This document shows, one piece after another, positions 3,366 to 64,000 of a stretch of DNA of 64,000 nucleotides. A program made the translations under genes and the position numbers. The DNA is taken from positions 46,748,001 through 46,812,000 of the forward strand of contig OZ024748.1 in assembly GCA_964016885.1 (NCBI GenBank), written 5' to 3'. This DNA comes from Eledone cirrhosa. Taxonomy: Eukaryota. The notes under the pieces were generated by a model. That model had not been told where the DNA came from. It ran no database searches and saw only the letters and a program-made list of their open reading frames with translations. Positions within the stretch are counted from its first letter, which is position 1, and every line of letters starts with the position of its first letter.

Positions 3366-3694
3366 TATGTAGTGCTTGGGATTCTTCTGTTGAATATATA
3401 CTATATACTGGCGTGTTTATCCTGGAAATTGTCAAGTTGTTGACTTATGTAAGGTAGTGTCGGTAATTTTGGTGTATTAGGTCTTGTGGTGCTGTTAAAA
3501 ATATGTACTGCAGTGTCTATGTAGAAGAGTATGTTGTTAAGTGAATTATTCTGTAGGCCATATGTTGATGATTGTGGTGTTGGTGAATGGAATACAGTGT
3601 CTATATATGTGGCTGTGGTGTTGTTGTCTGTGAGGACTGCAACAGAACTGTCTATGTAGGTGATAGTTGTGTTGTAAAATGTATTGTACATCAG

Positions 3695-5390
3695 TGTCGA
3701 TGTAGCTGATAGTGGTGTCAGGAAATATATAGTACTGTAGTTTCTATATAGGTGATAGTGGTGTCGTGAAATATATAGTGCTGTAGTGTCTATATAGGTG
3801 ATAGTGGTGTCATGGAATATATAGTGCTGTAGTTTCTATGTAGATGATAGTGGTGTGGTGAAATATATAGTACTGTAGTTTCTATGTAGGCGATAGTGGT
3901 GTCATGAAATATATAGTGCTGTAGTTTCTATGTAGGTGATAGTGATGCTGTGAAATATATAGCGCTGTAGTGTCTATGTAGGCGATAGTGGTGTCATGAA
4001 ATATATAGTGCTGTAGTTTCTATGTAGGAGATAGTGGTGTCGTGAAATATATAGTGCTGTAGTTTCTATATAGGTGATAGTGGTGTCATGAAATATATAG
4101 TGCTGTAGTTTCTATGTAGGTGATAGTGATGTAGTGAAATATATAGTGCTGTTGTGCATATGTAGGTGATAGTGATGTAGTGAAATATATAGTGCTGTAG
4201 TGTCTCTGTAGGTGATAGTGGTGTAGTGAAATATATAGTGCCGTAGTCTCTATGTAGGTGATAGTGGTGTTGTGAAATATATAGTGCTGTAGTCTCTATA
4301 TAGGTGATAGTGGTGTAGTGAAATATATAGTACTGTAGTCTCTATGTAGGTGATAGTGGCGTCGTGAAATATATAGTACTGTAGTTTCTATGTAGCTGAT
4401 AGTGGTATCATGAAATATATAGTACTGCAGTCTCCATGTAGGTGATAGTGGTGTTGTGAAATATATAGTAATGTAGTCTCTATGTAATGGATAATGGTGT
4501 AGTGAAATATATAGTGTTGTAGTTTCTATGTAGGTGATAGTGGTGTAGTGAAATATATAGTGCCGTAGTCTCTATGTAGGTGATAGTGGTGTCGTGAAAT
4601 ATATGGTACTGTAGTCTCTATGTAGGTGATAGTGGTGTCGTGAAATATATAGTACTGTAGTTTCTATGTAGCTGATAGTGGTATCATGAAATATATAGTA
4701 CTGCAGTCTCCATGTAGGTGATAGTGGTGTTGTGAAATATATAGTAATGTAGTCTCTATGTAATGGATAATGGTGTAGTGAAATATATAGTGTTGTAGTT
4801 TCTATGTAGGTGATAGTGGTGTAGTGAAATATATAGTGCCGTAGTCTCTATGTAGGTGATAGTGGTGTCGTGAAATATATAGTACTGTAGTCTCTATGTA
4901 GGTGATAGTGGTGTCGTGAAATATATAGTACTGTAGTCTCTATGTAGGTGATAGTGGTGTTGTGAAATATATAGTACTGTAGTCTCTATGTAGGTGATAG
5001 TGGTGTCGTGAAATATATAGTGCTGTAGTCTCTATATAGGTGATAGTGGTGTAGTGAAATATATAGTGCTGTAGTCTCTATATAGGTGATAGTTGTGTAG
5101 TGAAATATATAATACTGTAGTCTCTATGTAGGTGATAGTGGTGTCGTGAAATATATAGTACTGCAGTCTCCATGTAGGTGATAGTGGTGTAGTGAAATAT
5201 ATAGTACTGTAGTCTCTATGTAGGTGATAGTGGTGTCGTGAAATATATAGTACTCTAGTCTCTATGTAGGTGATAGTGGTGTCGTAAAATATATAGTACT
5301 GTAGTCTCTATGTAGGTGATAGTGGTGTCGTGAAATATATAGTGCTGTAGTGTATATGTAGGTAATAGTGGTGTCGTGAAATATACGTTC
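3695..5390. repeat. Minisatellite, 46-bp unit, about 36 copies, with a 276-bp (6-mer) higher-order duplication
   Basis: Unit gtaggtgatagtggtgtcgtgaaatatatagtactgtagtctctat (e.g. 4861 and 4907); the variant block tgtagctgat...taatggataatgg recurs at 4391 and 4667. Confidence 0.97.
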
Positions 5391-5444
5391 TTCAGTGTTT
5401 ATATATGTGGTTGCTGTGTAATTGAGCTTATGTACTGTAAGCAC

Positions 5445-6450
5445 AGTGTTTATGTTGATGAACGTGGTGCTCTTGTATGTAGTGTAGTCTTTATGTTGAT
5501 GGTTGTGGTGTTGTATGTAGTGTAGTGTAGTGTTTATGTTGATGGTTGTGGTGTTGTATGTAGTGTAGTGCAGTGTTTATGTTGATGAATGTGATACTCT
5601 TGTATGTAGTGTAGTGTTTATGTTGATGGTTGTGGTGTTGTATGTAGTGTAGTGTAGTGTTTATGTTGATGGTTGTGGTGTTGTATGTACTGTAGTTTAG
5701 TGTTTATGTTGATGAATGTGGCTGCTCTTGTATGTAGTGTAGTGTTTATGTTGATGGTTGTGGTGTTGTATGTAGTGTACTGTAGTGTTTATGTTGATGT
5801 TTGTGGTGTTGTATGTAGTGTAGTGTCTATGTTGGTGGTTGTGTTGTTGTATGTAGTGTAGTGTGTATGTTGATGGTTGTGGTGTTGTATGTAGTGTAGT
5901 GTTTATGTTGATGGTTGTGGTGTTGTATGTAGTGTAGTGTAATGTCTATGTTGGTGGTTGTGGTGTTGTATATAGTGTAGTGTAGTGTTTATGTTGATGG
6001 TTGTGGTGTTGTATGTAGTGTAGTGTAGTGTTTATGTTGATGAATGTGGTGCTCTTGTATGTAGTGTTTATGTTGATGGTTGTGGTTTTGTATGTAGTGT
6101 AGTGTAATGTCTATGTTGGTGGTTGTGGTGTTGTATGTAGTGTAGTGTAGTGTCTATGTTGGTGGTTGTGGTGTTGTATGTAGTGTAGTGTCTATGCTGG
6201 TGGTTGTGGTGTTGTATGTAGTGTAGTATAGCGTCTATGTTGGTGGTTGTGGTGTTTTTTGTAGCGTAGTGTAGTGTCTATGTTGGTGTTTGTGGTGTTG
6301 TATGTAGTGTAGTGTCTATGTTGGGTCGTGTTGTTGCATGTACTGTAGTTTAGTGTCTATGTTGGTGGTTGTGGTGTTGTATGTAGTGTAGTGTCTATGT
6401 TGGTGGTCGTATTTTTGTATGTACTGTCGTGTAGTGTATATGTTGGTGGT
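5445..6450. repeat. GT-rich minisatellite, 33-38 bp variable unit
   Basis: Repeats of gtgt(t/c)tatgttg(a/g)tggttgtggtgttgtat(gtagt)n. Confidence 0.93.
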
Positions 6451-12052: not shown

Positions 12053-12095
<43 letters not shown>

Positions 12096-12100
<5 letters not shown>

Positions 12101-12638
12101 ATTGAATATAAAAGAAAAACGAACACAGATATATACATATATGTGTTCAAATCGTAAGGGACCAGATTCGCTATGGTGAACTCCGTTAATTTTTTTAGCT
12201 ATTTCAAATGTGGAATAAACCTGGCTGCTATTTTTAGTCGTGTGGGTTTGTGAGACACGCTAGGACACCATGTGCGATGTTCAGTTTCTTAACATACTTA
12301 GAAGCGTCTAGAATACTAATTTATCACCCACTGATGAGCATAAATTGGTAATTCTATTCACAATTAACATTGCGAAACAACACCAAGTTGTCTGGGTGAT
12401 TTGTATTTATTTTCTTGATATTTTCTTAAATTGAGACAAGCAAACCCAATTGTCTATAGTTAGTATTTTTTTCACCTTAGCGGATCTGCTCCCTTGCGAT
12501 TTGAACACATATATCTATATATCTCTGTTCGTGTTTCTTTTATATTCAATTATAATATACGGCTCGGAAATATCTCTTTCTTAGAGCTATTTTGTTGTAA
12601 GAGACTATTTTGAGTTCCTAACTCAATATATACCTTTG
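12096..12638 (+). mobile_element. Penelope-like pLTR/retrozyme remnant with HHR and an inverted 5' copy of its 3' part, flanked by (TA)n
   Basis: 12096-12180 is an imperfect reverse complement of 12471-12555; HHR at 12323-12400; TA tracts on both sides. Confidence 0.75.
12323..12400 (+). ncRNA. Type I hammerhead ribozyme, canonical core
   Basis: atcaccca-CTGATGA-gca...tgc-GAA-acaac accaa gttgt-C-tgggtgat; 8-bp stem I, 5-bp stem III, GUC site, predicted cleavage after 12392. Confidence 0.9.
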
Positions 12639-12888: not shown

Positions 12889-12992
12889 TATAACGCCGCT
12901 TTGTTCGTTTGTAAACAAACTGAACAGCCTGAATTTATGCCATACGGTGTTAAGGCAACCACGTCACCTTTTTGTTCAACACTGACACAGGA

Positions 12993-13035
12993 ACGATGTA
13001 CTAGTTTCAAGCTTGTTAGCTATCATCAGCACCGT
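12993..13035 (-). ncRNA. Minimal type I HHR (inverted copy)
   Basis: Reverse complement of 13363-13405. Confidence 0.85.
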
Positions 13036-13055
13036 ATACCCATCTGCCAGATAGT

Positions 13056-13126
<71 letters not shown>

Positions 13127-13362
13127 TGCTACTGTACGTCTGTATACATATATGTATGTACGTATACATACATACTTACATTTAAGTAAGTGCCATACTA
13201 AGAGTGAGAAATGAGATTTCGTTTTCATTTTATTTCAACCTATCGTTTTCGGTATGCCTGACCGATTTAACTCACTCAATATGCAAATTAGGCTGCTCAG
13301 CCGCTAATTTTCATAAGGAAAGTATATACTTTCGAACGTTCAACTATCTGGCAGATGGGTAT

Positions 13363-13405
13363 ACGGTGCTGATGATAGCTAACAAGCTTGAAACTAGTAC
13401 ATCGT
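13363..13405 (+). ncRNA. Minimal type I HHR
   Basis: acggtg-CTGATGA-t agct aaca agct t-GAA-actagt-A-catcgt; palindromic stem III ACTAGT, GUA site, cleavage after 13399. Confidence 0.85.
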
Positions 13406-13534
13406 TCCTGTGTCAGTGTTGAACAAAAAGGTGACGTGGTTGCCTTAACACCGTATGGCATAAATTCAGGCTGTTCAGTTCACCAAATATATATATATAT
13501 ATATATATATATCAACTATCTGGCAGATGGGTAT

Positions 13535-13577
13535 ACGGTGCTGATGATAGCTAACAAGCTTGAAACTAGTACATCGT
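13535..13577 (+). ncRNA. Minimal type I HHR (tandem copy)
   Basis: Same sequence as 13363-13405, 172 nt downstream. Confidence 0.85.
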
Positions 13578-13655
13578 TCCTGTGTCAGTGTTGAACAAAA
13601 AGGTGACGTGGTTGCCTTAACACCGTATGGCATAAATTCAGGCTGTTCAGTTCAC

Positions 13656-13715
<60 letters not shown>

Positions 13716-15643: not shown

Positions 15644-15771
15644 TTTATATACATACACACAGACGCACACACATACATATATATATACACACATATATAC
15701 ATATACTCACACATACATATATATATATATAATACATTAATAAATAGAAAATATATTTATAAAACCATATT

Positions 15772-15837
15772 TATTTTATTATATATATTTCAAGGGCAAC
15801 CAAGGCAAATTATGGTGCGCTTTCATCAGATAAAATA
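15772..15837 (-). ncRNA. Type I HHR (left arm)
   Basis: Mirror copy of 15995-16060. Confidence 0.75.
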
Positions 15838-15994
15838 CAGATTTGTTTTATAAATAAATATTGACGTACCCGGAAAAAAAGACAACCTTAACGGTTGGAG
15901 CTTCCTGGATTATTCCTGGACTATCCAGGAAGTTCCAACCGTTAAGGTTGTATTTTTTCCGGGTATGTCAATATTTATTTATAAAACAAATCTC

Positions 15995-16060
15995 TATTTT
16001 ATCTGATGAAAGCGCACCATAATTTTCCTTGGTTGCCCTTGAAATATATATAATAAAATA
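15995..16060 (+). ncRNA. Type I HHR with (AU)4 palindromic stem III
   Basis: tattttat-CTGATGA-aag cgcacca...tggttgc c ctt-GAA-atatatat-A-ataaaata; 8-bp stem I, AUA site, cleavage after 16052. Confidence 0.8.
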
Positions 16061-16234
16061 AATATGGTTTTATAAATATATTTTCTATTTATTAATATAT
16101 TGTGTATTTACTCCACTAACCTATTGAGTGCTTTATATCAGTTATAAAAAGTTTAAGCTTGTTGAATCCCAACAAATTAAATATAACCTCTGCATATATA
16201 TGCAACGTTTTTTTAAATATACACTTCTGCGTTC

Positions 16235-16310
16235 ACAGATTGACTTTGTTAGTTTCAGAGGATCTCGTTAAAGGTGAAAGCAGCGATCCTTTGCGTAAAC
16301 GTTAATCCGT
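16235..16310 (+). ncRNA. HHR-like motif of the CAGAAGA-core family (diverged copy)
   Basis: acagattgactttgttagttt-CAGAGGA-tctcgttaaaggt-GAAA-gca...tgc; homologous to 53063-53137. Confidence 0.55.
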
Positions 16311-16519
16311 TATTTTAATAAATATATATATATAATCACCATTCTTTCTGTTTCTGCCTCTCTTTGTATCTCCGTCTGTCCGTCTGTCACTGTATCCCTG
16401 TTTCTGTTTATACATCCACGCTTCCTCCCATCTCCTCACTGTATCTCTCTCATGGTCGGTAAACCGCAAATAAAACATTTGCTTAAACCAAACAACAGAT
16501 AAATGTATTTCTTTCATAG

Positions 16520-17585
<1,066 letters not shown>

Positions 17586-19226
17586 CTAATGTTACCATGT
17601 TGTGTTTTGTTTGGTTGTGGTTGTTTTTTTTGTGTGTGTGTGTTTATTTTTATTGTCGTTATTGCCATCATTTCGGATGTCGTTCTTATTTATAAATCAT
17701 TATAACAACTACTATTGTTAAAACACAGAATACCAATAACTCTACTACTACTATTAATGATAGCAATATTATTAATAATATTAATAATAATAACAATAAT
17801 AATAATAGTAATAATAATATTGAAATTAATAACAATAATAATGATAGTAAAATGATAGTAATAATAAAAATAACAATGATTATTATTATTTTGTTATCAA
17901 TATTACTAATGTTGTTATTATTATTTTCTTATCGTTTGATATATACTTGGTGTACTTTTTCTAGTTTCTGTTTGATTTGATTTTATTCGTTTCTATCAAG
18001 ATTTATTATGTTTGCTAGTGTCTCTATTTTTTTTTGTCTCTAAAAAAACGAGCTTTGTCAATATACAAAAATGTTATTAGTATAATAGTGCATTATCAAT
18101 ACGAATGAGCATTATCAGTATCAATTATTTTTACTGTTTCAAGAAAGGAAGAAAGTCAGTACAGTACCCATGACAAGTTACAACGCCTTACATGGTTGGT
18201 AGGAAGTAGTTACCATCCATATGCAAACCTGAAATGAATGCTTGTATAAGAGAGTACTCCACTAAATGAGGCTAAGGTCCAGATGATGCGGTGTTAAACT
18301 AGACGACCTATTATGTCAAACAGCTAAAAACTCAGTAACTTAAAGAGTCGACACAAAGTACCCAAAATTTCTCATATGATGTTCTAACTATCCCCACCAA
18401 TCTTCAGCTCTGGCTGGTACTATATTTTATAGAGACTGAAGAGATCGATGACAAAACTGGATTTCAGTGATATTTGAACACACAATACAGAGAAACGGAA
18501 TAAGTAATGCAAAAGTTCCTGTCTAAATTTCTTACAATTTGCCCAATACAACGCCCTACAAGGGTACATTATTCTTTTGACACCGGGTGCATGGAAGGTA
18601 AAATGTGACCTCTGAATTATTTGAATATACCACACAATGAACCGAAATAAATAATAATGAATAATGCAAAAACATCTCCTCTGATATTCTTACAATTTAC
18701 ATAATACATCACCCTAAATGAGTACTTTATTATATCAAGCTCGAGAGGATGAAAATCAAAATTGATCGTGGTGAGATTGCATCTGAGAGATCCATGATAT
18801 AGCACAGGCCATTTAATCCAACGATCTAATGAATATGCCAAAAATCTGTGAATATTTCCATCAGTTTGAAATAGGTGACTCACCTATCTCTCTATACTCC
18901 TTCATTACCACAACGAAACCAACATATCCGCTTCATTCGTCTGGCGTTCGAGCAAACGTGGGTCTTCTCTCTTGACATGTTTGTACGAGTGGCACGATTT
19001 TAGCCGTCAATTACCTACTAATCACACCCTATCATAAAATACAAAGAATATGCACATTGTACAATATATAAACATAAGTTGCAGTTTCCACCAAAGAATA
19101 TATCCTCAAGATATCTTTGAACCCAGAGGAATAATTGTAAAACAAAGGGACACAATTTTGAGAGGAATCGAAACCGGAGCCATGAAGTTCAGAAGTAAAC
19201 TTTAAAACTACAGACTCATGTCATAA

Positions 19227-19405
19227 TAATTGATTCTACGTTGGGCACAAGGCCAGCAATTAACCAGTGCATTACTGGTACTTTATTTTGTCGACCTCGT
19301 AAGGATGAAAGGCAAAGTCAACCTCGGCGGGATTTGAACTCAGATCGTAAAGGGACGTAACTATGCTGGAAAGCATGGCGTACGACCCTCTACCGATTCT
19401 GCCAA
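19227..19405 (-). mobile_element. tRNA-derived SINE
   Basis: Minus strand has A-box-like tggcagaatcggtag, B-box gagttcaaatccc and core gcctttcatcc...ggtcga..aaataaagtaccag; close copies at 33650-33830 and 35234-35423. Confidence 0.85.
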
Positions 19406-19454: not shown

Positions 19455-20805
19455 TCTTCTGGTTTTATAATTTCACAAACGTTTACCAATAGAGAGAGAG
19501 TCGGTTTCTAACATAGACACAAGACTCTCTCATTGGAATTTACACAACATCAACTAGGTAGATATGTATGTATGCATGTGTAGATATGGATGTTATTGTA
19601 TGTGTTTGATGTGGATGTTTTGAGTTCTATGTGTGCATATGTATATGCTTTGTATCTGTACATGTGTATATGCAGTTATTAGATGCAACATTTTTTGAAT
19701 GTTTTACATATTTTTACTGTTCCAATAAGGGATTGTACTTGTAATTTCCTAACTAGTTGTGTTCTTTCTGTTCCTGTGAAGCCTAGCTTCTCAAGATTTG
19801 TATTGAGGCAGTTACTAACATATCCCAGTGCCCCAATAATCACAGGCATAAATATGAAGGTGTAACCAGGGTGGAGTATCTGCAGATTTCTCATCAGTTC
19901 TGCATAAATATTCTCCTTTTCGCTAATCTTTGATATTATATTGGCATCTGCTGTGCAGCTAATTTCCACTACTCTGGATGTTTTCTGCTCCCTGTCCCAT
20001 ATCATAATATCTGGTCTGTCATGCCTGCATTTTATTGGGGTTTTTACTGGAACATTCCACCAGTACTCTTTCATATTATGTACATGGATGTCTTCCACAT
20101 TGTTGTAGCTTTTAACGTGTTTATTATCGGAGCTATCTTTTTTATGAACTGCGTTGTACAGTGTTTTGGCCACTACATCATGCCTCATATGTAGATAGTG
20201 CGGCGATGACATCTTTGGACAGCTGCTGATGACATGGGTGATATCCTCGATGTTAGTTCTGCAGAGTCTGCACTTGTTGTCACATCTAGGTGTTTTGCCT
20301 GCATCCCTATCTCTTTTGTGAATCAGGTATTTCGTGCTAATCTCCTGTTCCTGGATTGCAAAAGCGTATCCTTCAAAGTGGGAGCCAATATAGCAGTTGT
20401 TGATCCAAGATAGACTACTTTCCTTATCTATATTACTCTCACTCTGGAACTTCCTGGCAACATATCCATGCATGATTTTTTGCTGATAGGCATGCAGTTT
20501 TTCATCCATGGATTCACTGCGATACTGCTGAGCGACATCCCTGGGTGTGAGTTTTTGATTATCACACAGGGAATATATCCCAAGGAGTCCCTTCCCAACT
20601 CTCATGATCTTATGTGTTTCATGCAGATAGACTTGCTCCAGAAACGGCCTCCTACGCTTCGAGGTTCGTAGATGTTGTCGGAGAGATATGATGCGACATT
20701 CAAATGTTGTCTGGACTGATGTTAGGCCTCTGCCTCCCTGCTTACGTTTCAAGTAAAGGCGGTCTATGTCACTGTTGATGTGGAAGTTTCCGGTGTTGTT
20801 CAGTA
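19455..20805 (-). mobile_element. 5'-truncated R4/Dong-like RLE non-LTR retrotransposon in a (TATG)n microsatellite
   Basis: ORF 19679-20752 has the CCHC knuckle CRLCRTNIEDITHVISSC, RHD and the PD..D endonuclease motif RPDIMIWD...VEIS; 3' UTR hairpin; TATG repeats on both flanks. Confidence 0.9.
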
Positions 20806-21564
20806 TGTATGTGTGTATGTATGTGTGTATGTGTGTATGTATGTGTGTGTGTATATATATATGGTATGTATATATGGTACTTGTGTGATAGAGAGAAAGA
20901 GCTTATTTGAGAATAATACTCTTTAAATCCTTCCAATCTCTTAATGCATTATATCTATATTAGTATTTATATCTATATTAGTATTTATATATGTTCTCAA
21001 ATGCACCAAATCCTACACATGCACCTATTCTCACGAGCACACGCAATAGTATACACACACACACACAATCCTATACATACATACACACACACACGTAATC
21101 CTATTCATACACATACACACAATCCTATATATGCATATATATATATACACACATACACATAATCCCATGCATATATACACATGCACACAATCCTATACAT
21201 ACATACATATATATATACATACACACAATCCTATACATATATATACACACACACGCAAACCTATACATATACACACACACACGTATATATATATAAATAT
21301 ATATATATGTAATAATATATAATAATATGTATACAATAATATATATATATAATAAAATATATAAATATAATAATAATATATATATGTATATTAATAAGTA
21401 TTATATGCATATATATATATATATATATATATACGCATATATATATACATATATATATATATACATATATATATGTCCCATTAAAGTAACATAAATATAC
21501 TTTTCACCATAGAAATATTCTGAATATGGATGCAATTAAATATATGTTAACGAATATAGAATAC

Positions 21565-24745: not shown

Positions 24746-24817
24746 GGAACCAGTAAGACCCCGACGGCTGAGCTCAAGCCGTTTCAAGAAACGTCCTCAT
24801 TCGTTCATCAGACAACA

Positions 24818-24895
24818 AATTGCCTTGTCTGACGAACAAATGAGGACGTTTCTTGTATTCGTCTTATTCGGGAAACCTCTGGTAATGAGGTAATT
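24818..24895 (+). ncRNA. Type I HHR with degenerate stem II
   Basis: aattgccttgt-CTGACGA-...-GAA-acc tct ggt-A-atgaggtaatt; 11-bp stem I with wobbles; inverted partial copy at 24785-24815. Confidence 0.6.
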
Positions 24896-27911: not shown

Positions 27912-28890
27912 TATATAGAATTCACATGAATCAAAGTTCTGTTCAAACCATTTATTAGCTTACAATTGTTTCATCCAAACCAAGGTTTGGATTCTTCGGA
28001 GCAATTTTTCAATGATTGTTTACATACATGACCTCCTTTCCAACACAAGAGACATACAGATACATATGTATATATCGATGCACACTGGGGTGACATCCAT
28101 TATAATATTTTTGCAGGGTAATTTAAATTCAAAAATTAAAATCATATTAAAACAGCAAAATTAAAGTTAAAATACAACATCGGCAGTTTACGTAGATAAT
28201 GCAAGAGGATAGTTTGTTAGTCAGTTGAAGTAGTTAGTGCATGCAATAGTTACACGTGGGGCATGCACGTGTGTCTTATTTATATAAGATTATTGTGCGG
28301 CAAGGTGTTATATGCAATACAAGTACTTTAAGCGGGTAATCAAGAGTATTATGGAGGTTGTAGTGGTAAAGTATTATGTGCAGAGAAATATTATAAATGA
28401 GAAGCAAAATAATGTTATGGTTTTTGTATACACCAGCATTTTCACAATTCAGGAAAGGTAGTATAAGTTTATATGTCCTTCACATAATTAACGATGATTC
28501 AGTATTGGATGTTTGATGTATTAAGTTAAATTATTACAGCTTGTTGCGGCTCAGTGTTCTTTAATCCAATTTTATAGAGCAGGTTGGTTTAGTTGCGAGA
28601 ATTTACATCGTTTTATTTTCCGGAAGTATGTGTGTGATTAAGGGGACAAATTGCTCCGAAAAATCCAAACCTCGGTTTGGATGAAACAATTGTAAGCTAA
28701 TAAATGGTTTGAACAGAACTTTGATTCATGTGAATTCTATATAACTGCTCTGTAGAACAACTGATGTTATTACATTGAGCTATTTATCTTACTGGTAATA
28801 AGGTAGTAATAAATTACTGTCTTTCACTGTTTAGGGTTTAAAATATATATAACTATAAAAAGTTTTAGTATATACATAACCATAAATAGT
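27912..28890 (+). mobile_element. Penelope-like remnant with inverted arms (27912-28007 and 28648-28743), each containing an HHR
   Basis: Near-perfect inverted repeat of about 95 bp; TA tracts at both outer ends. Confidence 0.75.
27954..28005 (-). ncRNA. HHR variant with CCGAAGA core (second copy at 28650-28701 + has CCGAAAA)
   Basis: gct-CCGAAGA-atccaaac cttg gtttggat-GAA-acaattgt-A-agc; 8-bp stem II, palindromic stem III, GUA site. Confidence 0.7.
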
Positions 28891-31518: not shown

Positions 31519-31924
31519 ATGAAGAGAGAAGAAACATTTAGATATAATTAGTAATAAAATGTATCATACCTAAACTGCTCTTAGATTCCTCGACTACGCA
31601 GTTTCGTGGCATAAACAAAAACAATACATCATAAAGATATAGAGTCCCTGCGAGGTCTGCTTAGCTCTGTTTCTCGACCGTTATATCGCGTGACTATCTC
31701 CCCCTCCGCCTTTTGGGATTCTTTCTCACGTCGTGTAGACGCGTTCTTGAGACTAGTAAAATGAGGTTTCCTCTTGATAAGTCGGCAGACCTCGCGGGGA
31801 CTCTATATCTTTATGATGTATTGTTTTTGTTTATGCCACGAAACTACGTATTTGAGGAATCTAGGAGCAGTTTAGGTATGATACATTTTATTACTAATTA
31901 TATCTAAATGTTTCTTCTCTCTTC

Positions 31925-32217: not shown

Positions 32218-32590
32218 GAAACAATAGATAAATAAACCATAGCTGTTTTATTCCCGATCAACAGCCACAGAATATTTACCCAGTATTACTAATAGCCCGT
32301 GGAAATAGATTAGATATATAGCCAATCTATACACAATTAGGTACAAAATCAAAGTTAGAAGAAAATGTATACAAGCATACCGAAATTATGTCTCAATTAT
32401 GTCTCAATTTTGGTATGCTTGTATACATTTTTCTTCTAACTTTGATTTTGTACCTGGATTGGCTATATATCTTGTGTATGGATTGGCTATATATCTAATC
32501 GATTTCCACGGGCTATTAGTAATACTGGGTAAATATTCTGTGGCTGTTGATCGGGAATAAAATAGCTATCGTTTATTTATCTATTGTTTC
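32218..32590. repeat. Long fold-back palindrome (arms about 170 bp) with a tandemly duplicated apex (aattatgtctc x2)
   Basis: 32218-32387 versus 32406-32590; the right arm has an extra ggattggctatatatct duplication. Confidence 0.93.
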
Positions 32591-33078: not shown

Positions 33079-33442
33079 CTGATGATTATATATATATATG
33101 TATATATATATATGTATATATATATATGAACAAGTAAGACCCCGACGGCTGAGCTCAAGCCGTTTCGATGGCTAATTTCTATATATATATATATATAATA
33201 ATGACGTACAAGCCACCAGGTTAGACTTTATCGCATTTATTCATTATACAATCGGTGTTATATACGTCATCGAAATATTCCTACAACATCTATTGTATAA
33301 TGAATATAGGAAGTAAATTTTAACCTGTTGACGTTTACTTCATTGTTATAATTAAACTCTGGATAAAGCAAGCTTACTTGTATACTTCGTTCAGTCCTTT
33401 AATCTGCATAGTGTTCGTGATTGACTAACACATATTTTACCA

Positions 33443-33649: not shown

Positions 33650-33830
33650 TTGGCAGTATCGGTAGAGGGTCGGACGCCATGCTTTCCAGTATAGTTACGT
33701 CCCTTTATGATCTGAGTTCAAATCCCGCCGAGGTTGACTTTGCCTTTCATCCTTAGGGGGTCGATAAAATAAAGTACCAGTAATGCACTGGGTAATTGCT
33801 GGCCTTGTGCCTAAAGTAGAAACAATTATT
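33650..33830 (+). mobile_element. tRNA-derived SINE
   Basis: tggcagtatcggtag (A box) ... gagttcaaatcccgcc (B box) ... gcctttcatccttagggggtcgataaaataaagtaccag. Confidence 0.88.
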
Positions 33831-33856
33831 TTCCTTTTTTCAAATATATATATATA

Positions 33857-34411
33857 TATTAAAATAACAGATTAAAGATTAAGCAAAGAATCGCTGCTTT
33901 CACCCTTAATGGGATCTTCTGAAGATCCCGTTAAGGGTGAAAGCAGCGATTCTTTGCTTAAACTTTAATCTGTTATTTTAATAAATATTTGCTCTACGGT
34001 TCTAATATATTTGATATATATTTATCCTTATCGAGCCCTCTTTGGATTTTAGTCTTCAAATTTATTATTATTACTATTATTATTACTATATATATATATA
34101 TTACTATATATATATATATATATTTATTTATTAAAATAACAGATTAAAGTTTAAGCAAGGAATCGCTGCTTTCACCCTTAACGGGATCTTCTGAAACTAA
34201 CAAAGTCAATCTGTGAACGCAGAAGTGAATATTTCAAGAAACGTTGCAACCGGAGGAAGACAGGAAGACGATAAGGGTGAAAGCAGCGATTCTTTGCTGA
34301 TACTTTAATCTGTTATTTTAATAAATATTTGCTCTACGGTTCATATATATTTGATATATATTTATCCTTATCGAGCGCTCTTTGGATTTTAGTCTTCTAA
34401 TTTATTATTAT

Positions 34412-34415
<4 letters not shown>
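33857..34415. mobile_element. Cluster of four CAGAAGA-family copies in two inverted pairs
   Basis: Palindrome 33857-33983 centred on 33920 (1-nt loop); minus copy 34125-34270 joined to plus copy 34272-34415; outer ends at (TA)n. Confidence 0.9.
34139..34214 (-). ncRNA. HHR-like motif, CAGAAGA core
   Basis: Reverse complement reads acagattgactttgttagttt-CAGAAGA-tcccgttaagggt-GAA-agca...tgct-T-aaactttaatctgt. Confidence 0.65.
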
Positions 34416-35130: not shown

Positions 35131-35233
35131 GTTTTATTTTATCTTTCTCATGACTTTATGACATTATTTTAATATGGTTTATGGATGTATACATATCTCT
35201 CTGCGTTCTATAATTTCATTTGAAATAATCAAT

Positions 35234-35423
35234 AATTATTTCTACTTTTGGCACAAGGCCAGCAATTACCCAGTGCATTACTGGTACTTTATTTTATCGA
35301 CCCCCTAAGGATGAAAGGCAAAGTGAACCTTGGCGGGATTTGAACTCAGATCATAAAAGGCCGTTACTCTATGCTGCAAAGCATGGCGCCCAGCCCTCTA
35401 CCGATACTGCCAATCCATCGCCC
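35234..35423 (-). mobile_element. tRNA-derived SINE
   Basis: Reverse complement of the 33650-33830 family, including the head ggcgatggattggcagtatcgg. Confidence 0.88.
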
Positions 35424-39700: not shown

Positions 39701-41838
<2,138 letters not shown>

Positions 41839-45359: not shown

Positions 45360-48300
45360 GTAGTGTTTGTAGATGTCCTCCTTCTCCTGTATTTTTCTGA
45401 CAACGTTTACATCAAGTGGGCAGCTGATCTCCACAACAGAACACGTTTCAATGTGTGGTCCCAAACTACAATATCAGGCCGGTTGAGCTTTAATTTGGTG
45501 GCAGTTTTTATTTTCAGGTTCCACCAGTATACCTTAGTGCCATCTGTCTCAATATATTCCTCCTCGTTTGTTGTTAATTTTGTTTTCCGAAGTGCGTTCC
45601 AGATGGTTCTAGCTATCCCATCGTGTCTCATGGGGAGGTAGTAGCGAGATGACATTCTTTCGCTGCTGGCAACAATGTGGCTTACATCCTCGATCTTTGT
45701 TTTACATAGCCTACATTTATTGTCAGCTGCTGGCCCTCCTCTTTTGTGCAGCAGATATTTGGTAGGGAGTTCTTGTTCCTGTATTGCATAGAGATATCCC
45801 TCAAGGTGTGATGTCATAAACTTGTCGGAACTCCATGCCAGGCTTTTTGAGTGGTTTATCCCCTCTATGGTCTGTGTTTTACGCCTCAAGTATCCATGCA
45901 CAACTTTTTCTGTAAATTGGTCAATTTGTTATCTTGTTTGAACATTGAATAGGATCTTCCGATTTCTCTGGGTAAGAGATTTATATCAGGCTTTATTCCA
46001 TATCTCTCCTCCAGATCAGTCGCTATTCTAATGATATTTTTTTTTCATGCTCATAAACCTGGGCAAGATGGTTGCCAACCTTTTTCCTCTGTTGAAGGTG
46101 ATGCTTCAGTGTTACTATCCGGGTCTCATATGTTGTTAATATTGATTTTAGACCCGGCCACCTTCTTTGCGTGAGAAGTATAGCCTATCCACATCACCAT
46201 TGATGTTAAAGTTCCCAGTAACACTGAGAAGTTTTCGAGTTCTAACATCCATCTCACTTAGTTCTTGCAATGACCAGTTCAGCAGGCTAAATGTTGGCGT
46301 TAGAATTGGCACAGCATAAGTATTGTGGGCAATGTATTTGTTGAATGCTGACAGTTCTGATGACCATATTTTCTTTACTCTTCTGAGGTATTCAGTTCTG
46401 GTTCTCTCCTTATTTATGGGTCCATCATATCTGACATTCTCATCCTGTCCAAGATATCTGTAGTTGTCATCTGACTGCAGAGGTTGTATTGTCAGGCCGT
46501 TCATCTCTAGATTTCTAGAGGAGGGCACAGCTCTTCCACATTTTACTGCCAAATATGCACACTTGGACTCACCAAATTTCATTTTGATGTCGGTTGAAAA
46601 TTGTGTAATGAGGTCCAATTGTTTCTTGATGTCATTGATATTTGGCCCATACAAATTCAGGTCATCAACAAAGAAAAGATGGGAGATACTTCTGGGCCCA
46701 CTTCTTTGTCCACCTTGTTTCCTGAGTAGGTAAGATAGTGGATTCAGTGAGAGAACGAAGAGTAGCACTGACAAGCTATCATCCTGAAAGATGCCCTTCT
46801 GGTAATGTATCTTATCAGTCTTAACTTGCTCCTTCTCACCTCTAAGGATCAAATTGGTGTACCAGTTCTTGGTCAGGAGTTCAACAGCAGCTACCAATGG
46901 TTGTGGGACTTTAGCTAAATTTAAAGCCTTAATAATCCACCCTTGAGGTACACTATCAAATGCATTTTGATGGTCCAGCCACACCACAGTCATGTTTCTG
47001 CGATTCTTTGTTGTTCTTTCCTGAATCATTTTGTTAGTTAGTAGGTGATCTATGCAACCCCACACCTCCCTCTTTCCACCAGCTTGCTCAGGTGTTATGA
47101 TGTTGTTGGTAGCACAGTGATCCTGTAAGAACAGGTTAAGGCACCCAGTATATAATTTATACATGATGTTTTGGCAGGCTATTGGGCGGTAATTTTTAGC
47201 AAGGGTGGTTTGGTTATTTTGGGGAATGAGGAGAGTAGTGGCAGTTGATAACCATCTGGGCAGTTCTTGTGTGCCTTTAATGGTTTCTGTAAACAGCCGT
47301 ATGAGATCTTGCCGATAGAAAGTTAAATTCTTCAACCAGTATCCTGTAATGAGGTCTGGGCCTGGCGATTTCCTATTCGACATTTTCTGTAGAGCTGTTT
47401 CCAGTATTGACCCATCTATGTCATTGTTTTATTTGGACATGTTGGCAGTAGTCCTGTTCCAGTTCTTTTAGCCAATTAGCTTGTCTGTTGAATCCCTCAT
47501 CCATTTCCCATACAGATCTCCAGTAGCTCTTAACCTGTTCTTTTGAAGGGATGTCGTTTACAGGGATTGACCTTTTGCCACCGAAGCTGCGATAAACTGA
47601 TTTAGGATCTTTGGCAAACAATCTATTTAGCACTTGTCGTTTATGTGCTGTTGACTTATATTTTAGTCTTTCTGTTGTAGCTGTGAGTTGTTGTTTCAAC
47701 TGGTGTAATTTGGAGTTCAAAGTTTTAAATTTTGTATCTCCAAATCGTCTCTCTAACTTTTTCTTTAGGTCTTCCTGGTGTCATGTGAAGTTGCTCTCTA
47801 TGTTGCATTTCATAACGACTGCGATGTGTGAGATACTTCGTCTCAGGGAGAAAATTTTGGTTTTTAAATTTCGCATCCACGCTCGTTCAGGCTTTCTGTT
47901 TGTATCTTGATTGCGTGGTTTTAGATGTGTGTTATATGATAGCAATGTGACAGCTGAAACATATAACAAAACATTAAGCGTTTCAAATGTCGTTTCTACA
48001 CCTTTAGATCGTATAGCTTTCAGATAACTGCCAGCTATTTCGTTCACCGCTTCCAATTCCAATTTAGTGGGTTCTTTACTGATTCTGGTGTTGTATGGTC
48101 TGTCACTCACATTAAGGCTGTGTATCTCTTGAAACATATCGTTCCATATCACTTGTAGGGTGTCCACAAGTTTTTGGTGCTCTGTTTGTTCAGTAGAGTC
48201 ATGAATTTCAGCCTCGTTGTTGATATGGTGACAATTACTACTAGAGTTAGCTGACCTTTCTCGCTGTTCTTCAGTGGAAGTGGGATGGATTTCAGCAAAA

Positions 48301-49277
48301 TTGTTGTTGAGCTGTTCACTGTTAGATTTAGCTGGCCATTCTCTTTGTCTGTCAGTGGAGGTGGGGTCGTTGTCTACAAGGGCTGTATTTGTAGTATCAC
48401 TCAATTCCGTTAGATGTATCAATTTACATCTAATGATACGTTTTGCCTGTTCATTTAAATGCTTTGGAGAAAAGTCTAATTCTGGGTGTTTGGAGTTCCA
48501 TAAAGTTTTTAGTCTTTGCATAAAACCGAACTTTTGGGGTTCAGATTGTTTGTATGCTTCATATAATACTTTGTTAAGCTCGTAGCTCCACTGTATACAA
48601 CGGTTGTAGTTGCGATTTGGTCGAAGGAGACTTTTTGCCATGATGAGTTCGTCTATTCACTAATATTTTGTATTTATTTTTCAAAATAGTCGATGATCTT
48701 CTTTAAAAGTTTCGACAAGGTTCTGTCAGAATCAAATTTAAGGTTATTCACAGCTTGGGTAATATTTCTTTTCAGTTAGTTTTTAATTCTACAACTGTGT
48801 TTTAAACGTTGTTCTTGAATCGTTTGAATCGAGAACAAAAAGAACCGTTACTTAGTATATTTCTTTATGAATGTAATATAATATAACAACGCTGTATTTA
48901 TATGTTAAAGTTTATGTATCATTCATATAAATAGGTGTTCTACAACTTATTCACAACATATTCACAGTTCAAACACTTATGTTTTTGTTTCTGAATCGAA
49001 AACGTTACTTGTATATTTCTTTATAAATGTAATATGACAACGTTGCATTTATATGTTAAAGTATATGTATCGTTCATATATCATAAGTGTATGTATCGTT
49101 CATATAAATAGGTGTTTTACAACACACTTACAGTTCAAACACTTATGTAGAATTATTGTATGTAATCTTACCGCGTAATGTAGCTCAACTTTTTCCAATA
49201 TATGGTATGTTGCCTTCATGTAAGCCGTAATTACACACGTCCGATTATCGGACACTGACCATAACGGTCGCCATTAT
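45360..49277 (-). mobile_element. Near full-length but decayed R4/Dong-like RLE non-LTR retrotransposon
   Basis: Frameshifted ORF pieces 48641-47781, 47720-47421, 47383-46148 (RT: SPGPD, YRPIAC, EQAG, AFDSV, FVDD) and 45901-45407 (CRLC..H knuckle, RHD, RPDIVVWD); 5' end abuts (TACA)n. Confidence 0.92.
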
Positions 49278-51189: not shown

Positions 51190-51279
<90 letters not shown>

Positions 51280-51446
51280 AATTAGTATATCTAGTAACAT
51301 ATATATACACAGATGCATCCTTATGTTAGCAAATATATAGGTTTTTTTCTTAGTAACTATGTGGTTCAATGAATGGGGTTGCAGAACTATAATATGAGAG
51401 ACGTAAAATAAGAAAATTATAAAATTAACTTACTTACTTAAATTTC

Positions 51447-51528
51447 ACTCCCAACTAATTAGTTTCTGAAAGGGATTAAACGTACTATCCGAAGAGAGCA
51501 CGGAGAAGCCTTTCGTCATCAGGGAAGT
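51447..51528 (-). ncRNA. Type I HHR
   Basis: Reverse complement of 52342-52423. Confidence 0.78.
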
Positions 51529-51966
51529 CTATTCTCAGCTAAGTTTCCAGGCAATACGTGGACACAGAGAACTTATACAAAAATAATTAAGTGGATGGAA
51601 AAAGCAAAGCGAGGACTAATTCCAAGCCATTGATAAAATCACTGCCTCCTGCGTCGGTGGCAAATTCAAAAGAATCAATCACGTGACATCGAGGTCAATC
51701 AGTGGATAGTGGTTTGTTAGTAAGACAGCAGCCGTACTGTTACTATAGCAGCAGTTTTGGCCATTTTTGCTCGACAAATAATTTTGGAGATAATTATAAA
51801 GAATTAGTATATCTAGTAACATATATATACACAGATGTTACTTATGTTAGCAAATATATAGGTTTTGTCTTAGTAACTATGTGGGTCAATGCATGGGGTT
51901 GCAGAACTATAATATGAGAGACGTAATATAAGAAAATTATAAAATTAACTTACTTACTTAAATTTC

Positions 51967-52048
51967 ACTCCCAACTAATTAGTTTCTGAAAGGGATTAAA
52001 CGTACTATCCGAAGAGAGCACGGAGAAGCCTTTCGTCATCAGGGAAGT
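51967..52048 (-). ncRNA. Type I HHR
   Basis: Tandem copy 520 nt from the previous one. Confidence 0.78.
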
Positions 52049-52341
52049 CTATTCTCAGCTAAGTTTCCAGGAAATACGTGGACACAGGGAACTTATACAA
52101 AAATAATTCAGTGGATGGAAAAAGCAAAGCGAGGACTAATTCCAAGCCATTGTTAAATCACTGCCTACTGCGTCGGTGGCAAATTCAAAAGAATCAATCA
52201 CGTGACATCGAGGTCAATCAGTAGCCAGTGATTTTATCAATGGCTTGGAATTAGTCCTCGCTTTGCTTTTTCCATCCACTGAATTATTTTTGTATAAGTT
52301 CCCTGTGTCCACGTATTGCCTGGAAACTTAGCTGAGAATAG

Positions 52342-52423
52342 ACTTCCCTGATGACGAAAGGCTTCTCCGTGCTCTCTTCGGATAGTACGTTTAATCCCTT
52401 TCAGAAACTAATTAGTTGGGAGT
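52342..52423 (+). ncRNA. Type I HHR
   Basis: acttccc-CTGATGA-c gaaagg...cctttc a-GAA-actaattagt-T-gggagt; palindromic stem III, GUU site. Confidence 0.78.
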
Positions 52424-52471
52424 GAAATTTAAGTAAGTAAGTTAATTTTATAATTTTCTTATTTTACGTCT

Positions 52472-52524
<53 letters not shown>

Positions 52525-53062
52525 TAAAATAACAGATTAAAGTTTAAGCAAAGAATCGCTGCTTTCACCCTTAATGTGAAATGTACGTATTTGTATGCGT
52601 GTATGTATGTGTATGTACGTATTTGTATGCGCGTATGTATTTATTTAATTTCTATTACCTCTGTATTGTATTTATTTACTTTCATCTTAACTCTGAAGTG
52701 GAGATTCATTCGGTCTCCTAGTTAGAATTTTAGTCTACGACTTCTGCTATACCATTTACGTGGTTTTGTCTTTGCGTGCAATTGTTCTCCACGCTCCACA
52801 TATGACGTATTATCTACGTTTTTTTCGTTCATTGCCAGAGAACGTCTCTATGAACAACCTAAGAGAACATTATTCTACTACCTCTTTTATACCATAAACG
52901 TGGTTCTGTCTTTGCGCGTAATTGTTTTTCACCGCTCCTATTAATGACGTATCTTATTCGTTTATTCCCGTTCTTTAACAGCGAACGTTTCCACGAACCA
53001 AAGTATAGTCTTGCTGTCTTCCTCCGGTTGCAACGTTTTTTGAAATATCCACTTCTGCGTTT

Positions 53063-53137
53063 ACAGATTGATTTGTTAGTTTCAGAAGATCCCGTTAAAG
53101 GTGAAAGCAGCGATTCTTTGCTTAAACTTTAATCTGT
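53063..53137 (+). ncRNA. HHR-like motif, CAGAAGA core, bulged extended stem I
   Basis: acagattga[bulge]agttt-CAGAAGA-tcccgttaaaggt-GAA-agca...tgct-T-aaact ttaatctgt; inverted partial copy at 52521-52574. Confidence 0.62.
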
Positions 53138-53148
53138 TATTTTAATAA

Positions 53149-53241
<93 letters not shown>

Positions 53242-53337: not shown

Positions 53338-53806
53338 TAACTTTGAATAACTTTGAAATGTTTTGGCCAGTATTGGCCCAGGCCATGTCTAACTTAATAG
53401 CACCACCTGGCGAAGTCTTTCAATTCAGGATTTGGGCACCATGGCCCATTCGAGAAGAGAATTACTGTTTGCGGAGACATATCCAGGTGTGGGTGGTTTG
53501 TCCGGGATTACTTGGAGGAATTTGTCCAAAGACTTCTTGAATTTTGTGTGGTCAGTTTCTGTTTTGACGTGTCCTGGTGTGATGTTGAAAAGAGCAGGGC
53601 CGATTGAGGTGAAATAATTGTGCCGTATTGTTGTTATGAGTTGCGATTTAGATTTTTGAATGGGACGGATAGCACGGGGCCCAAGCCTTGGGTGTATCTT
53701 GAAGGCGATGCCAACATCATTTGGGCAGTGATGATGGAACATTTTCCACATCATGCAGATAATATAACGCTCACGGCGACGTTGGAGTGAGTAAAGTTTC
53801 AGGTTT
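53338..53806 (-). mobile_element. CR1-like LINE 3' fragment in (TA)n
   Basis: [15 protein letters not shown]...GPALFN...[14 protein letters not shown]...SNSLL is homologous to the 41246-41755 product; short tandem tail (TTCAAAGTTA)n. Confidence 0.85.
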
Positions 53807-54396
53807 ATATTTTCATATATATATATATCATATATATATATATATATATTCATATATATATATATAATATATATATATATCATATATATATATATCATAT
53901 ACATATATATATATTTACATATATATATATTTACATATATATATATCATATACATATATATATATTTACATATATATATATTTACATATATATATATTTA
54001 CATATATATATATCATATACATATATATATCACATACATATATATATCATATACATATATATATCATATACATATATATATATCATATACATATATATAT
54101 ATCACATACATATATATTTATCATATACATATATATATATCATATACATATATATATATCATATACATATATATATATATATACATATATATATACATAT
54201 ATATATATCATATACATATATATATATATACATATATATATACATATATACATATATATATACATATATATATATCATATATATATATATATACATATAT
54301 ATATATCATATACATATATACATATATATATATCATATACATATATATATATATTTACATATATATATATCTTATACATATATATATATTATATAC

Positions 54397-55283: not shown

Positions 55284-55437
55284 TGGAGCTCTGAAATAGC
55301 AACATATATATGGATGTATATATAATGTATTTTGCAATACACTTTATGCTAAATTAATAGCATTTTGAAGACCGTATGCTATTGTTTTAGAGTAGTGACA
55401 CATTCACTTACTTGAATCTCAGCAAACAGGGGAGATA

Positions 55438-55482
55438 AGCCGACAAGGCCTTGTTTCGCTTTTGTTGAAGCTTATCAAGGAT
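55438..55482 (-). ncRNA. Type I HHR, U3-A8 core (stem I mismatch)
   Basis: atcc-TTGATAA-gctt caacaa aagc-GAA-acaaggccttgt-C-ggct. Confidence 0.7.
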
Positions 55483-55754
55483 AACTACCCCTCCTGTCTA
55501 CTGAGATTACTGATGTTAAATTCTTATAGAATTCTAGTAAATAATCAGGAACTGATTATACAGAGCGATTGTTGGTCAGGCAGAAATTAAAAATTAGAAG
55601 TGGAGCTCTGAAATAGCAATATATATATGGATGTATATATAATGTATTTTGCAATACACTTTATGCTTAATTAAAAGCATTTTGAAGACCGTATGCTATT
55701 GTTTTAGAGTAGTGACAAATTCACTTAATTTAATCTCAGCAAACAGGGGAGATA

Positions 55755-55799
55755 AGCCGACAAGGCCTTGTTTCGCTTTTGTTGAAGCTTATCAAGGCT
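55755..55799 (-). ncRNA. Type I HHR, U3-A8 core
   Basis: agcc-TTGATAA-gctt caacaa aagc-GAA-acaaggccttgt-C-ggct; 12-nt palindromic stem III, GUC site. Confidence 0.82.
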
Positions 55800-56367
55800 A
55801 ACTACCCCGCCTGTCTACTGAGATTACTGATGTTATATTCTTATAGAATTCTAGTAAATAATCAGGAACTGATTATACAGAGCGATTGTTGGTCAGGCAG
55901 AAATTAAAAATTAGAAGTGGAGCTCTGAAATAGCAATATATATATGGATGTATATATAATATATTTTGCAATACACTTTATGCTTAATTAAAAGCATATA
56001 TATATATATATATATACAAATATATACATATATATATACATATATACAAATATATACATATATATATACATATATATATACATACATATATATATACATA
56101 TATATATACATATATATATACATATATATATATACATATATATATACATATATATATATATACATATATATATACATATATATATATACATATATATATA
56201 CATATATATATATACATATATATTTACATATATATATATACATATTTATTTATATATATACATACATATATATTTATATATATACATATATATTTATATA
56301 TATACATATATATTTATATATATACATATATATTTATATATATACATATATATATATATATATACAA

Positions 56368-58954: not shown

Positions 58955-59112
58955 TCAGAAGATCCCCTTAAGGGTGAAAGCAACGATTCTTTGCTTAAAC
59001 TTTAATCTGTTATTTTAATAAATATTCGCTCTACAGTTCTTATATATTTGATATATATTTATCCTTATAGAGCCCTCGTTGGATTTTAGTCTTCTAATTT
59101 ATTATTATTACT
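58955..59112 (+). mobile_element. CAGAAGA-family copy, 5'-truncated at the HHR core and ending in TA
   Basis: tcagaagatccccttaagggtgaaagcaacgattctttgcttaaactttaatctgtt...; matches 33921-34075. Confidence 0.85.
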
Positions 59113-62933: not shown

Positions 62934-63046
62934 TTGTTACATAATAAGGTTATGTTTCCGAGGTAATCCAAGTTGAATCGACATGGGAACGGACTATATA
63001 TATATATAATATAAGATCAAAAGATGGTTAAAGGAGTTCCATGTAA

Positions 63047-63113
63047 TTTTATTATGCGCATTTCAAAAACAAACATCATCATGCAATAATATTTGTGTTT
63101 TCATCAGATAAAA
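63047..63113 (-). ncRNA. Type I HHR (left arm)
   Basis: Mirror copy of 63238-63304. Confidence 0.78.
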
Positions 63114-63237
63114 CAGGAGAACATGATATGAAGGCTAAAAAACACTTGTGGATAGTGCAGTTTTAAATCAACATATATGTTGATTTAAAACTGCACTATC
63201 CACAAGTGTTTTTTAGCCTTCATATCATGTTCTCCTG

Positions 63238-63304
63238 TTTTATCTGATGAAAACACAAATATTATTGCATGATGATGTTTGTTTTTGAAATGCGCATAAT
63301 AAAA
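63238..63304 (+). ncRNA. Type I HHR
   Basis: ttttat-CTGATGA-aaacacaaatattatt...gatgatgtttgttttt-GAA-atgcgcat-A-ataaaa; palindromic stem III, AUA site, cleavage after 63298. Confidence 0.78.
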
Positions 63305-64000
63305 TTACATGGAACTCCTTTAACCATCTCTTGATCTTATATTATGTATACTCCAGTCCTACAAACTGTAGAGTGCTTCTTATCCGATATCTGCATTGCT
63401 TTATTGTACTACAATAAAACTCAGCTCCTACATATATATATACGTACATGTGTCTATGCATCTTCTTATGTATGTGTGACTGTGTATTTTCATATTTCAG
63501 TATTAGAGAACATGTGAGAGTAATTCTTTGATACAAAACTGTTCAAAGAGTGGATTATACTTTATGAGGAAATATAGAAATAAAAACCTTTAGAACAGAA
63601 TATATCGTTCAGATTTGAACCTAGATTTAAATCATTCGCAAAACTTTCTATTTCTCGTGAGTGTCTCTACCGAAATAATGGTATCGCTTGTCTTCCCCCA
63701 CGGTCAAAAATTATTCCAATATTAGATTTTATTGCATTACTATTTACCAATACAATCGATCTCTTTTTCCCACGGATTCTTGACTGCTGTTTTAATATAT
63801 ACCTACCTCTGGGTTAGTTTAGCCGTCAGTCAGGTTTTATCAAATTTTATCTAGCAATTGTATATCATCATTGCCCCTACGCTATTTTGTATATAACTAT
63901 ATTTGTCTTGGTCCACATATATTGTAACCTTTAGTCTATAATGTTTATTGCATTAAGAGTGCAGGCCTTTGTGGCTAATGAAGAAATTATTATTAACAAT

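Follow-up and report, generated by a model that had tools for sequence, protein, structure and literature searches.

Results

Structure of the insertion

The locus lies in a 64-kb stretch of DNA (the window, i.e., the whole stretch that was analysed), which contains no N. It consists of two direct copies and one flipped copy of a repeat unit, each carrying a hammerhead ribozyme (HHR) motif, set in a TA repeat (Table 1). A tandem unit of about 520 nt followed by an inverted partial copy had been described in an earlier note; this layout was recovered as 522 + 425 + about 250 nt, with starts of the direct copies at 51276 and 51798 and with TA tracts on both sides, as had been reported. The strand switch, previously put near 52224, was placed at 52219–52222, where the two arms overlap by 4 nt; an overlap of at least 4 nt is expected in about 2% of random position pairs.

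Table 1. Features of the HHR-bearing insertion, in positions of the 64-kb window.
Feature	Position	Strand	Remark
Left (TA)n tract, presumed target	51197..51275		last 3–4 bases common to element end
Unit 1, full 522-nt copy	51276..51797	-	element 3' ("long") end abuts left TA tract
3' extension, ~116–125 nt, tail-like	51276..51397	-	in both direct copies, not in inverted copy
Possible 50-nt spliceosomal intron	51388..51437	-	GTAAGT donor, pyrimidine tract, TAG acceptor; putative
Type I HHR motif 1	51447..51528	-	predicted cut 3' of 51453
~93 nt private to unit 1	51705..51797	-	unit 2 ends before reaching equivalent stretch
Unit 2, 5'-truncated tandem copy, 425 nt = pseudo-LTR (pLTR)	51798..52222	-
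Type I HHR motif 2	51967..52048	-	predicted cut 3' of 51973, 520 nt from cut 1
Microhomology, 4 nt, at head-to-head inversion joint	52219..52222		one substitution 3 nt away
Inverted 5'-truncated copy, ~250 nt	52219..52478	+	3' ("short") end at 52472–52478, merges into TA tract
Type I HHR motif 3	52342..52423	+	predicted cut 3' of 52417
Right (TA)n tract	52475..52519		common to next HHR-like insertion (about 52520–53150)

The offset between the direct copies is 522 at their start, 520 at the HHR and 519 beyond it. Tandem Repeats Finder works up to a longest period of 500, and the unit of 522 nt is hence beyond its reach. As inverted arms, either 51392–51651 or 51912–52157 matches 52219/52233–52478, with 98% complementarity over 246–260 nt, and the inverted arm ends 116–125 nt short of the direct-arm end. 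The unit has a GC content of 36%. Both element ends have a few A/T bases in common with the TA tract. A target-site duplication (TSD), often hard to discern for PLE insertions in general, is unreadable inside the TA flanks, and the unit junction at 51797/51798 is free of a TA spacer.

In the direct copies the HHRs are sense on the minus strand, a correction to the earlier reading of the orientation; the inverted copy carries its HHR on the plus strand. It follows that both element 3' ends point outward into TA, while the 5' ends stand head-to-head. Donor- and acceptor-like motifs occur 50 nt apart on the 3' side of the HHR, which makes a spliceosomal intron in the pLTR possible. A MITE or TIR DNA transposon was rejected as an identity for the insertion, the inverted arm matching an internal stretch that starts ~120 nt inside the left end.

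Hammerhead motifs

HHRs reported before at 51447, 51967 and 52342 as looking identical were found at exactly these positions, and the 84-nt stretch with the HHR is free of differences among all three copies. Purifying selection on the HHR did not reach significance, with 0 differences in 84 of 428 nt for about 12 events (P≈0.07). With a structural descriptor, 12 sites in the window passed, the three at the locus included; 50 block-shuffled windows gave 0.02 sites on average and never more than 1. When one core mismatch was permitted, 16 sites were obtained vs. 0.68 in shuffled windows; 43 cores of the CUGANGA type are listed in the window. Rfam returned nothing at the gathering score for the whole window and, up to E=10 for 51200–52550, no HHR family and only chance miRNA matches. 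The HHR call therefore depends on the structural descriptor and not on Rfam.

The core is intact in each motif. Stems I and II both have 6 bp, stem II carrying a loop of 35 nt, and stem III is palindromic. The cleavage site, GUU, obeys the NUH rule but ranks below the best triplet (PMC9217987). Between G12 and the final pair of stem II lies an additional A, which creates a C·A mismatch at the stem II base, and a U occupies position 17. The G10.1-C11.1 pair beside the core, reported to be highly conserved in the HHRs of Penelope-like elements (PLEs) (PMC4209133), is absent at the locus, where the C·A mismatch is followed by G-C; the same position is U·U or A-U in other families of the window. 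Core-adjacent mispairs were rejected in one HHR survey, yet U·U variants were reported there (PMC3088659), and axolotl U·U variants are described to cleave as dimers (PMC7229834). HHRs of PLEs and retrozymes in print were often weak or silent in vitro.

The energy of stem III was calculated as +1.5 kcal/mol for the hairpin vs. -9.0 for the two-copy duplex, values which suggest that the HHR is of the dimer-dependent type. Dimer-cleaving PLE HHR variants reportedly have their own published study, and C·A and GUU variants may already be described there.

Predicted RNA products

The cut-to-cut distance on the minus strand is 520 nt, in line with the length of the RNA proposed in the earlier note; the further proposal of about 250 bp of dsRNA was found to apply to another molecule. 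When the whole minus-strand RNA is modelled, one of the two direct HHRs is taken up in pairing with the inverted arm, its stems having probabilities of about 0, and the plus-strand HHR is likewise buried. Since the inverted arm occupies one direct HHR, a 520-nt double-cut RNA and a ~250-bp hairpin need different transcripts. For the tandem RNA without the inverted arm, a stem I probability of about 0.03 was obtained in a model that represents the dimer fold poorly. The predicted circle has an MFE of -101.1 vs. -94.2 ± 4.7 in 60 shuffles (z = -1.5) and is not notably structured.

According to these models, cleavage by the HHR would be confined to transcripts with a start within unit 2 and no inverted arm, while a read-through transcript would form the ~250-bp hairpin, with silencing of one HHR. 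If the locus is transcribed through, this hairpin could be a substrate of a small-RNA or editing pathway.

Coding content and homology searches

The six-frame translations of the locus are stop-rich and no ORF with a homologue was found, which upholds the former statement that the insertion has no ORF. A 47-codon ATG frame across the unit junction, tried as a PLE N-terminus, had no Pfam match, and comparison with longer proteins gave no homologue (0/20 candidates scored; weak evidence). The 5' end of unit 1 showed nothing recognisable as a coding remnant. Pfam analysis of the 113 non-repetitive ORFs of ≥60 aa in the window revealed no GIY-YIG domain at E up to 0.001, and a GIY-YIG regular expression, a strict pattern of low power, gave 0 matches over the window. 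With no ORF for a telomerase-like RT plus GIY-YIG at the locus or in the window, it is concluded that the locus is not an autonomous PLE; the autonomous element that the earlier note proposed to search for was not found in the window.

Further copies of the 522-nt family were not found elsewhere in the 64-kb window, and the unit had no match among phage sequences. A search for homologues with the nearby RT yielded 642 RT relatives. Broken non-LTR retrotransposon ORFs (RVT_1, zf-RVT) are located at 45410–48656 (-) and 19679–20902 (-) and are presumably R4/NeSL-like. A LINE RT ORF at 39902–41755 (+), with a stop between two open frames, and a similar-looking C-terminal fragment at 53425–53997 (-) are taken by us to be CR1/L2-like. 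A dispersed repeat of ~180 nt, which we assume to be SINE-like, occurs at 19225–19405, 33650–33830 and 35231–35413 with 88–94% identity.

Twin priming is an L1-style mechanism, and a SINE-like HHR element mobilised in this manner by a LINE with an R4/NeSL-like or CR1-like RT would be compatible with the microhomology at the joint and with the RT ORFs at 46148–47428 and 39902–41206 in the window. We consider this very improbable, as blastn (word size 7) found no sequence common to the unit and the LINE-type RT elements of the window, and as a partial tandem with a one-sided extension and a palindromic-stem HHR is the pattern of PLEs.

Other insertions in the window

About ten other HHR-bearing repeat families were identified in the window (those at 24811 and about 31775 being judged by eye), which looks like animal DNA and of which 26% is masked by microsatellites. 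Of 18 rows, 13 remained as contiguous fold-backs once repeated rows, a cross-pair of two insertions and the 12918 pair with its intervening TA had been set aside. In eight of them, one arm lies ≤3 nt from the masked microsatellite and the other arm 74–132 nt away; two are symmetric, and three fit neither class. That the extension is element sequence was demonstrated only for the 522-nt family and the neighbouring family. From the roughly ten HHR families and the 8/13 asymmetric fold-backs, it is evident that the insertion is one case of a common local pattern.

The neighbouring family (52520–53150), with inverted ends of ~55 nt, has a MITE-like look, yet it contains an HHR-like motif, and the MITE reading was rejected for this family too. 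Related pieces are present at 16201–16328, 33850–34412 and 58955–59098. This motif has a CUU site and an intact core at 33919, with one core change at each of 53083 and 34193. Separate copies again show the short end and the extension, and there is an internal degenerate duplication of 140 nt. The family extends >500 nt upstream of the HHR-like motif, with no Pfam match in this part, and its fold-back at 52521–53148 is of the symmetric short/short form.

A 317-nt tandem of about 2.2 copies is located between TA tracts at 55285–55997, and its family is also represented at 1–190. Its HHR is on the minus strand and has a known U3-A8 core variant, and, like the 522-nt unit, it has a GTAAGT donor-like motif on the 3' side of the HHR. 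A dispersed copy of this sibling family runs about 10 nt past the unit junction, and only in this family was a fixed unit length seen across copies.

A very young HHR family at 12918–13057 and 13340–13684 comprises two 100% identical 147-nt copies with TA between them and an identical inverted copy; its HHR is compact, with a U·U mismatch at the stem II base. The copies of a 172-nt tandem family are TA-separated and are accompanied by a separate inverted copy. More fold-backs were recorded at 15742–16090, 63013–63338, 27918–28737, 31521–31924, 12095–12556, 24785–24855, 33200–33344 and 32218–32590, mostly beside TA tracts and mostly with outward HHR-like motifs and one-sided extensions. Single HHR-like motifs are found at 62592 (+), with a changed core position 6, and at 12331 (+), with a non-palindromic 4-bp stem III and a G-C pair beside the core. 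At 2906–6450, minisatellite arrays lie side by side; their units measure 63, 46 and 43 nt, and their GC skew is strong.

Divergence between the copies

Over 428 columns, the alignment of units 1 and 2 shows 11 substitutions and three gap events, and 6, 3 and 5 differing columns were counted in the 248 columns common to the three copies. The copies, identical in the HHR-containing 84 nt, differ by 1–3.5%. As other HHR insertions in the window are 99–100% identical, the insertion is young, although the window contains younger ones, and its earlier description as recent holds in a relative sense only. At three variant events the inverted arm has the state of unit 1 and at another three that of unit 2, the split expected for three copies with private changes.

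Two separate events, i.e., a single copy followed by an adjoining fold-back, or else a local tandem duplication, would accord with the reported tendency of PLEs to land in or beside earlier copies and with the TA between the copies of the 172-nt family. This origin is quite unlikely, given the junction without a TA spacer, the 93 nt of unit 1 that are missing from unit 2, and a likeness between unit 2 and the inverted arm that is not above that between unit 1 and the inverted arm.

The substitutions between units 1 and 2 comprise 1 transition and 10 transversions, and those between the first two copies of the 317-nt tandem, at 55285–55918, 1 transition and 8 transversions, vs. 35 transitions and 26 transversions in nine non-tandem comparisons. 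A post hoc Fisher test of the two pooled tandems (2:18) against the non-tandem counts (35:26) gave P = 2e-4; the pooled count leaves out the third, partial 317-nt copy, which adds one transition. The non-HHR 63-nt minisatellite is also transversion-leaning (6 transitions to 11), and the remaining non-HHR tandems gave transition:transversion counts of 10:5, 16:14, 5:6 and 97:47. Many of the changes between the units duplicate the adjacent base, which makes consensus error a possible source of the excess.

Copying of the adjacent base, as in consensus errors, would also be compatible with an assembly or read-chimera artefact, and PLE tandem and inverted structures are reported to trouble assemblies (PMC8557442). 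An artefactual origin is nonetheless extremely unlikely: the arms have private differences, stop at the element boundary and do not mirror the flank, unrelated families of the window show the same outward HHR polarity, and the window is without Ns.

Origin of the insertion

The insertion is very probably an ORF-less PLE-type product. The Penelope pLTR signature named in the earlier note is borne out by the layout, which matches the published PLE pattern (PMC8557442, PMC3846280). PLE insertions are described as partial tandems, often with an inverted truncated copy, a 30–40-nt tail at one end and a (TA)n bias (PMC8557442; PMC3846280; PMC8969392), and two direct plus one inverted pLTR with head-to-head joints, as well as non-PLE sequence between pLTRs that moved in trans, have been reported (PMC3846280). 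A purified PLE protein, for which a dimeric state is predicted, prefers AT-rich DNA, cutting both strands and extending them; reverse transcription begins at two internal sites downstream of the HHR, which define the tail, and insertion does not need the HHR (PMC11167929). The in vitro start site is described as non-homologous to the target (PMC11167929), whereas at the locus both ends have a few A/T bases in common with the tract.

We propose, as the probable course, one event with PLE reverse transcriptase and GIY-YIG endonuclease acting in trans. The PLE protein would nick both strands of the (TA)n tract. One nick would prime cDNA synthesis at the "long" start site, from which 1.8 units of a ~522-nt tandem or circular RNA would be copied, and the other nick would prime at the "short" start site about 120 nt upstream, with ~250 nt being copied. 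Joining of the two cDNA 3' ends via the 4-nt microhomology would then give the head-to-head inversion with the element 3' ends facing outward. The locus itself is most likely an inert copy.

The template could alternatively have been the RNA of an autonomous PLE, with a stop of the RT after 522 nt, a jump onto another RNA at the start site used before, and then inversion, in which case the unit length would reflect chance truncation. Such template jumping had been the mechanism given in the earlier note; it can no longer be read from the locus, since a continuous tandem or circular short RNA of 522 nt gives the identical sequence. Most PLE copies show 5' truncation, partial tandems are common among them (PMC8557442; PMC8969392), two templates could account for the 3.5% difference between the units, and the 3' end is common to both direct copies, although a continuous template gives the same. 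Against jumping, the 5' end of unit 1 is without a recognised coding remnant, the junction is family sequence in the 317-nt sibling, and no Pfam match appears in the >500 nt that the neighbouring family has upstream of the HHR-like motif. We regard a jump as rather unlikely and, given a PLE-type product, lean to a continuous non-autonomous template because of the sibling copy that crosses the junction and the lack of a coding remnant.

For the inverted arm, self-priming has to be weighed, where the nascent strand folds back on a 4-nt match and copies itself, and an endonuclease resolves the hairpin at a fixed site. Self-priming has been put forward as the source of head-to-head Penelope inversions (PMC3846280), as has resolution by the endonuclease for the PLE tail (PMC8557442), and the usual short/long ends (8/13) are accounted for, the asymmetry being explained at least as well as by two-strand priming. 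However, both strands were extended in vitro and the tail matches two RT start sites (PMC11167929), the fold-back at 52521–53148 is symmetric, and the inverted arm is as close to unit 1 as to unit 2, though private post-insertion changes could mask a closer relation. Self-priming is somewhat unlikely on this balance, though a rival to be taken seriously, and for a PLE-type product we slightly favour two-strand priming over fold-back.

A wider reading, which we offer as speculative and doubtful, combines short tandem or circular RNA templates, two-strand priming and an error-prone RNA template pool. The genome would, on that conjecture, hold many non-autonomous HHR-bearing PLE derivatives with two fixed start sites 75–130 nt apart, and the transversions would reflect a heterogeneous RNA pool (RNA-level replication or damage) and not DNA decay. 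If it is true, each insertion records a PLE integration intermediate and ties retrozyme circles directly to the PLE machinery. No paper pairing "twin priming" with "pLTR" was found among the matches listed in the literature search.

The locus is not exceptional, its architecture being known and recurring throughout the window, and alone it matters little, as one more ORF-less PLE footprint; the ~120-nt extension, the C·A mismatch at the stem II base and the transversion-rich tandem differences are mildly unusual. The origin of PLE tandem and inverted insertions and the role of the HHR are described as open (PMC8557442, PMC11167929); with some ten HHR families within 64 kb, this genome would be good material for addressing them through thousands of junctions.

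Comparison with known systems

Judged by its architecture, the locus appears to be a PLE product. With EN+ PLEs (Penelope/Poseidon, Neptune, Nematis and Hydra clades) as described, it has in common the partial tandem, the inverted 5'-truncated head-to-head copy, the one-end extension, the sense type I HHR near the 3' end and the (TA)n or AT-rich target; a palindromic helix III in the type I HHR of the pLTR is likewise a PLE feature. Retention of a spliceosomal intron in the pLTR is a further trait of these elements, to which the putative 50-nt intron may correspond. EN+ PLEs carry an RT-EN ORF, in contrast to the locus, and their reported tail of 30–40 nt is exceeded 3–4 times by the extension of about 120 nt. 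PLE tails near 120 nt were not encountered in the accessible literature, in a search that was not aimed at tail length. PLE HHRs are reported to keep the G10.1-C11.1 pair, where the locus has its C·A mismatch.

The palindromic-helix-III HHRs of metazoan PLEs (PMC4209133) resemble those of the locus in the intact core, the long helix II and the unpaired base after A9, and differ in that the locus has the extra A before G12 and U at position 17. For these ribozymes, the palindromic stem III/dimer design and opposite-strand HHR pairs 100–700 nt apart have been described (PMC4209133). Naiad PLEs also form tandem and inverted insertions in (TA)n (PMC8557442), but are described as being without canonical HHRs, whereas the locus has the full motif.

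A non-LTR retrozyme has been defined, for working purposes, as a run of two or more ORF-less units that each contain a complete type I HHR (10.64898/2026.07.22.740005), and the locus would, by its sequence, be classed as one. Like the metazoan representatives (PMC7229834; 10.64898/2026.07.22.740005), it has ORF-less tandem units with one type I HHR each, a GC content below 50% and a dimer-type stem III; its unit of 522 nt is within the 51–972 nt range of 10.64898/2026.07.22.740005 and above the typical 150–450 nt of PMC7229834. It differs from them in the predicted circle, which is not notably self-paired, in an HHR of the long-stem-II PLE type with a 35-nt loop, and in the inverted arm, which is not described for retrozymes in the available text of these two sources. 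Non-LTR retrozymes are argued to derive from PLE pLTRs in 10.64898/2026.07.22.740005, where only one of nine tested dimers cleaved. If the unit is a true non-autonomous circle, the locus adds a non-vertebrate-looking case to this proposed PLE origin of retrozymes.
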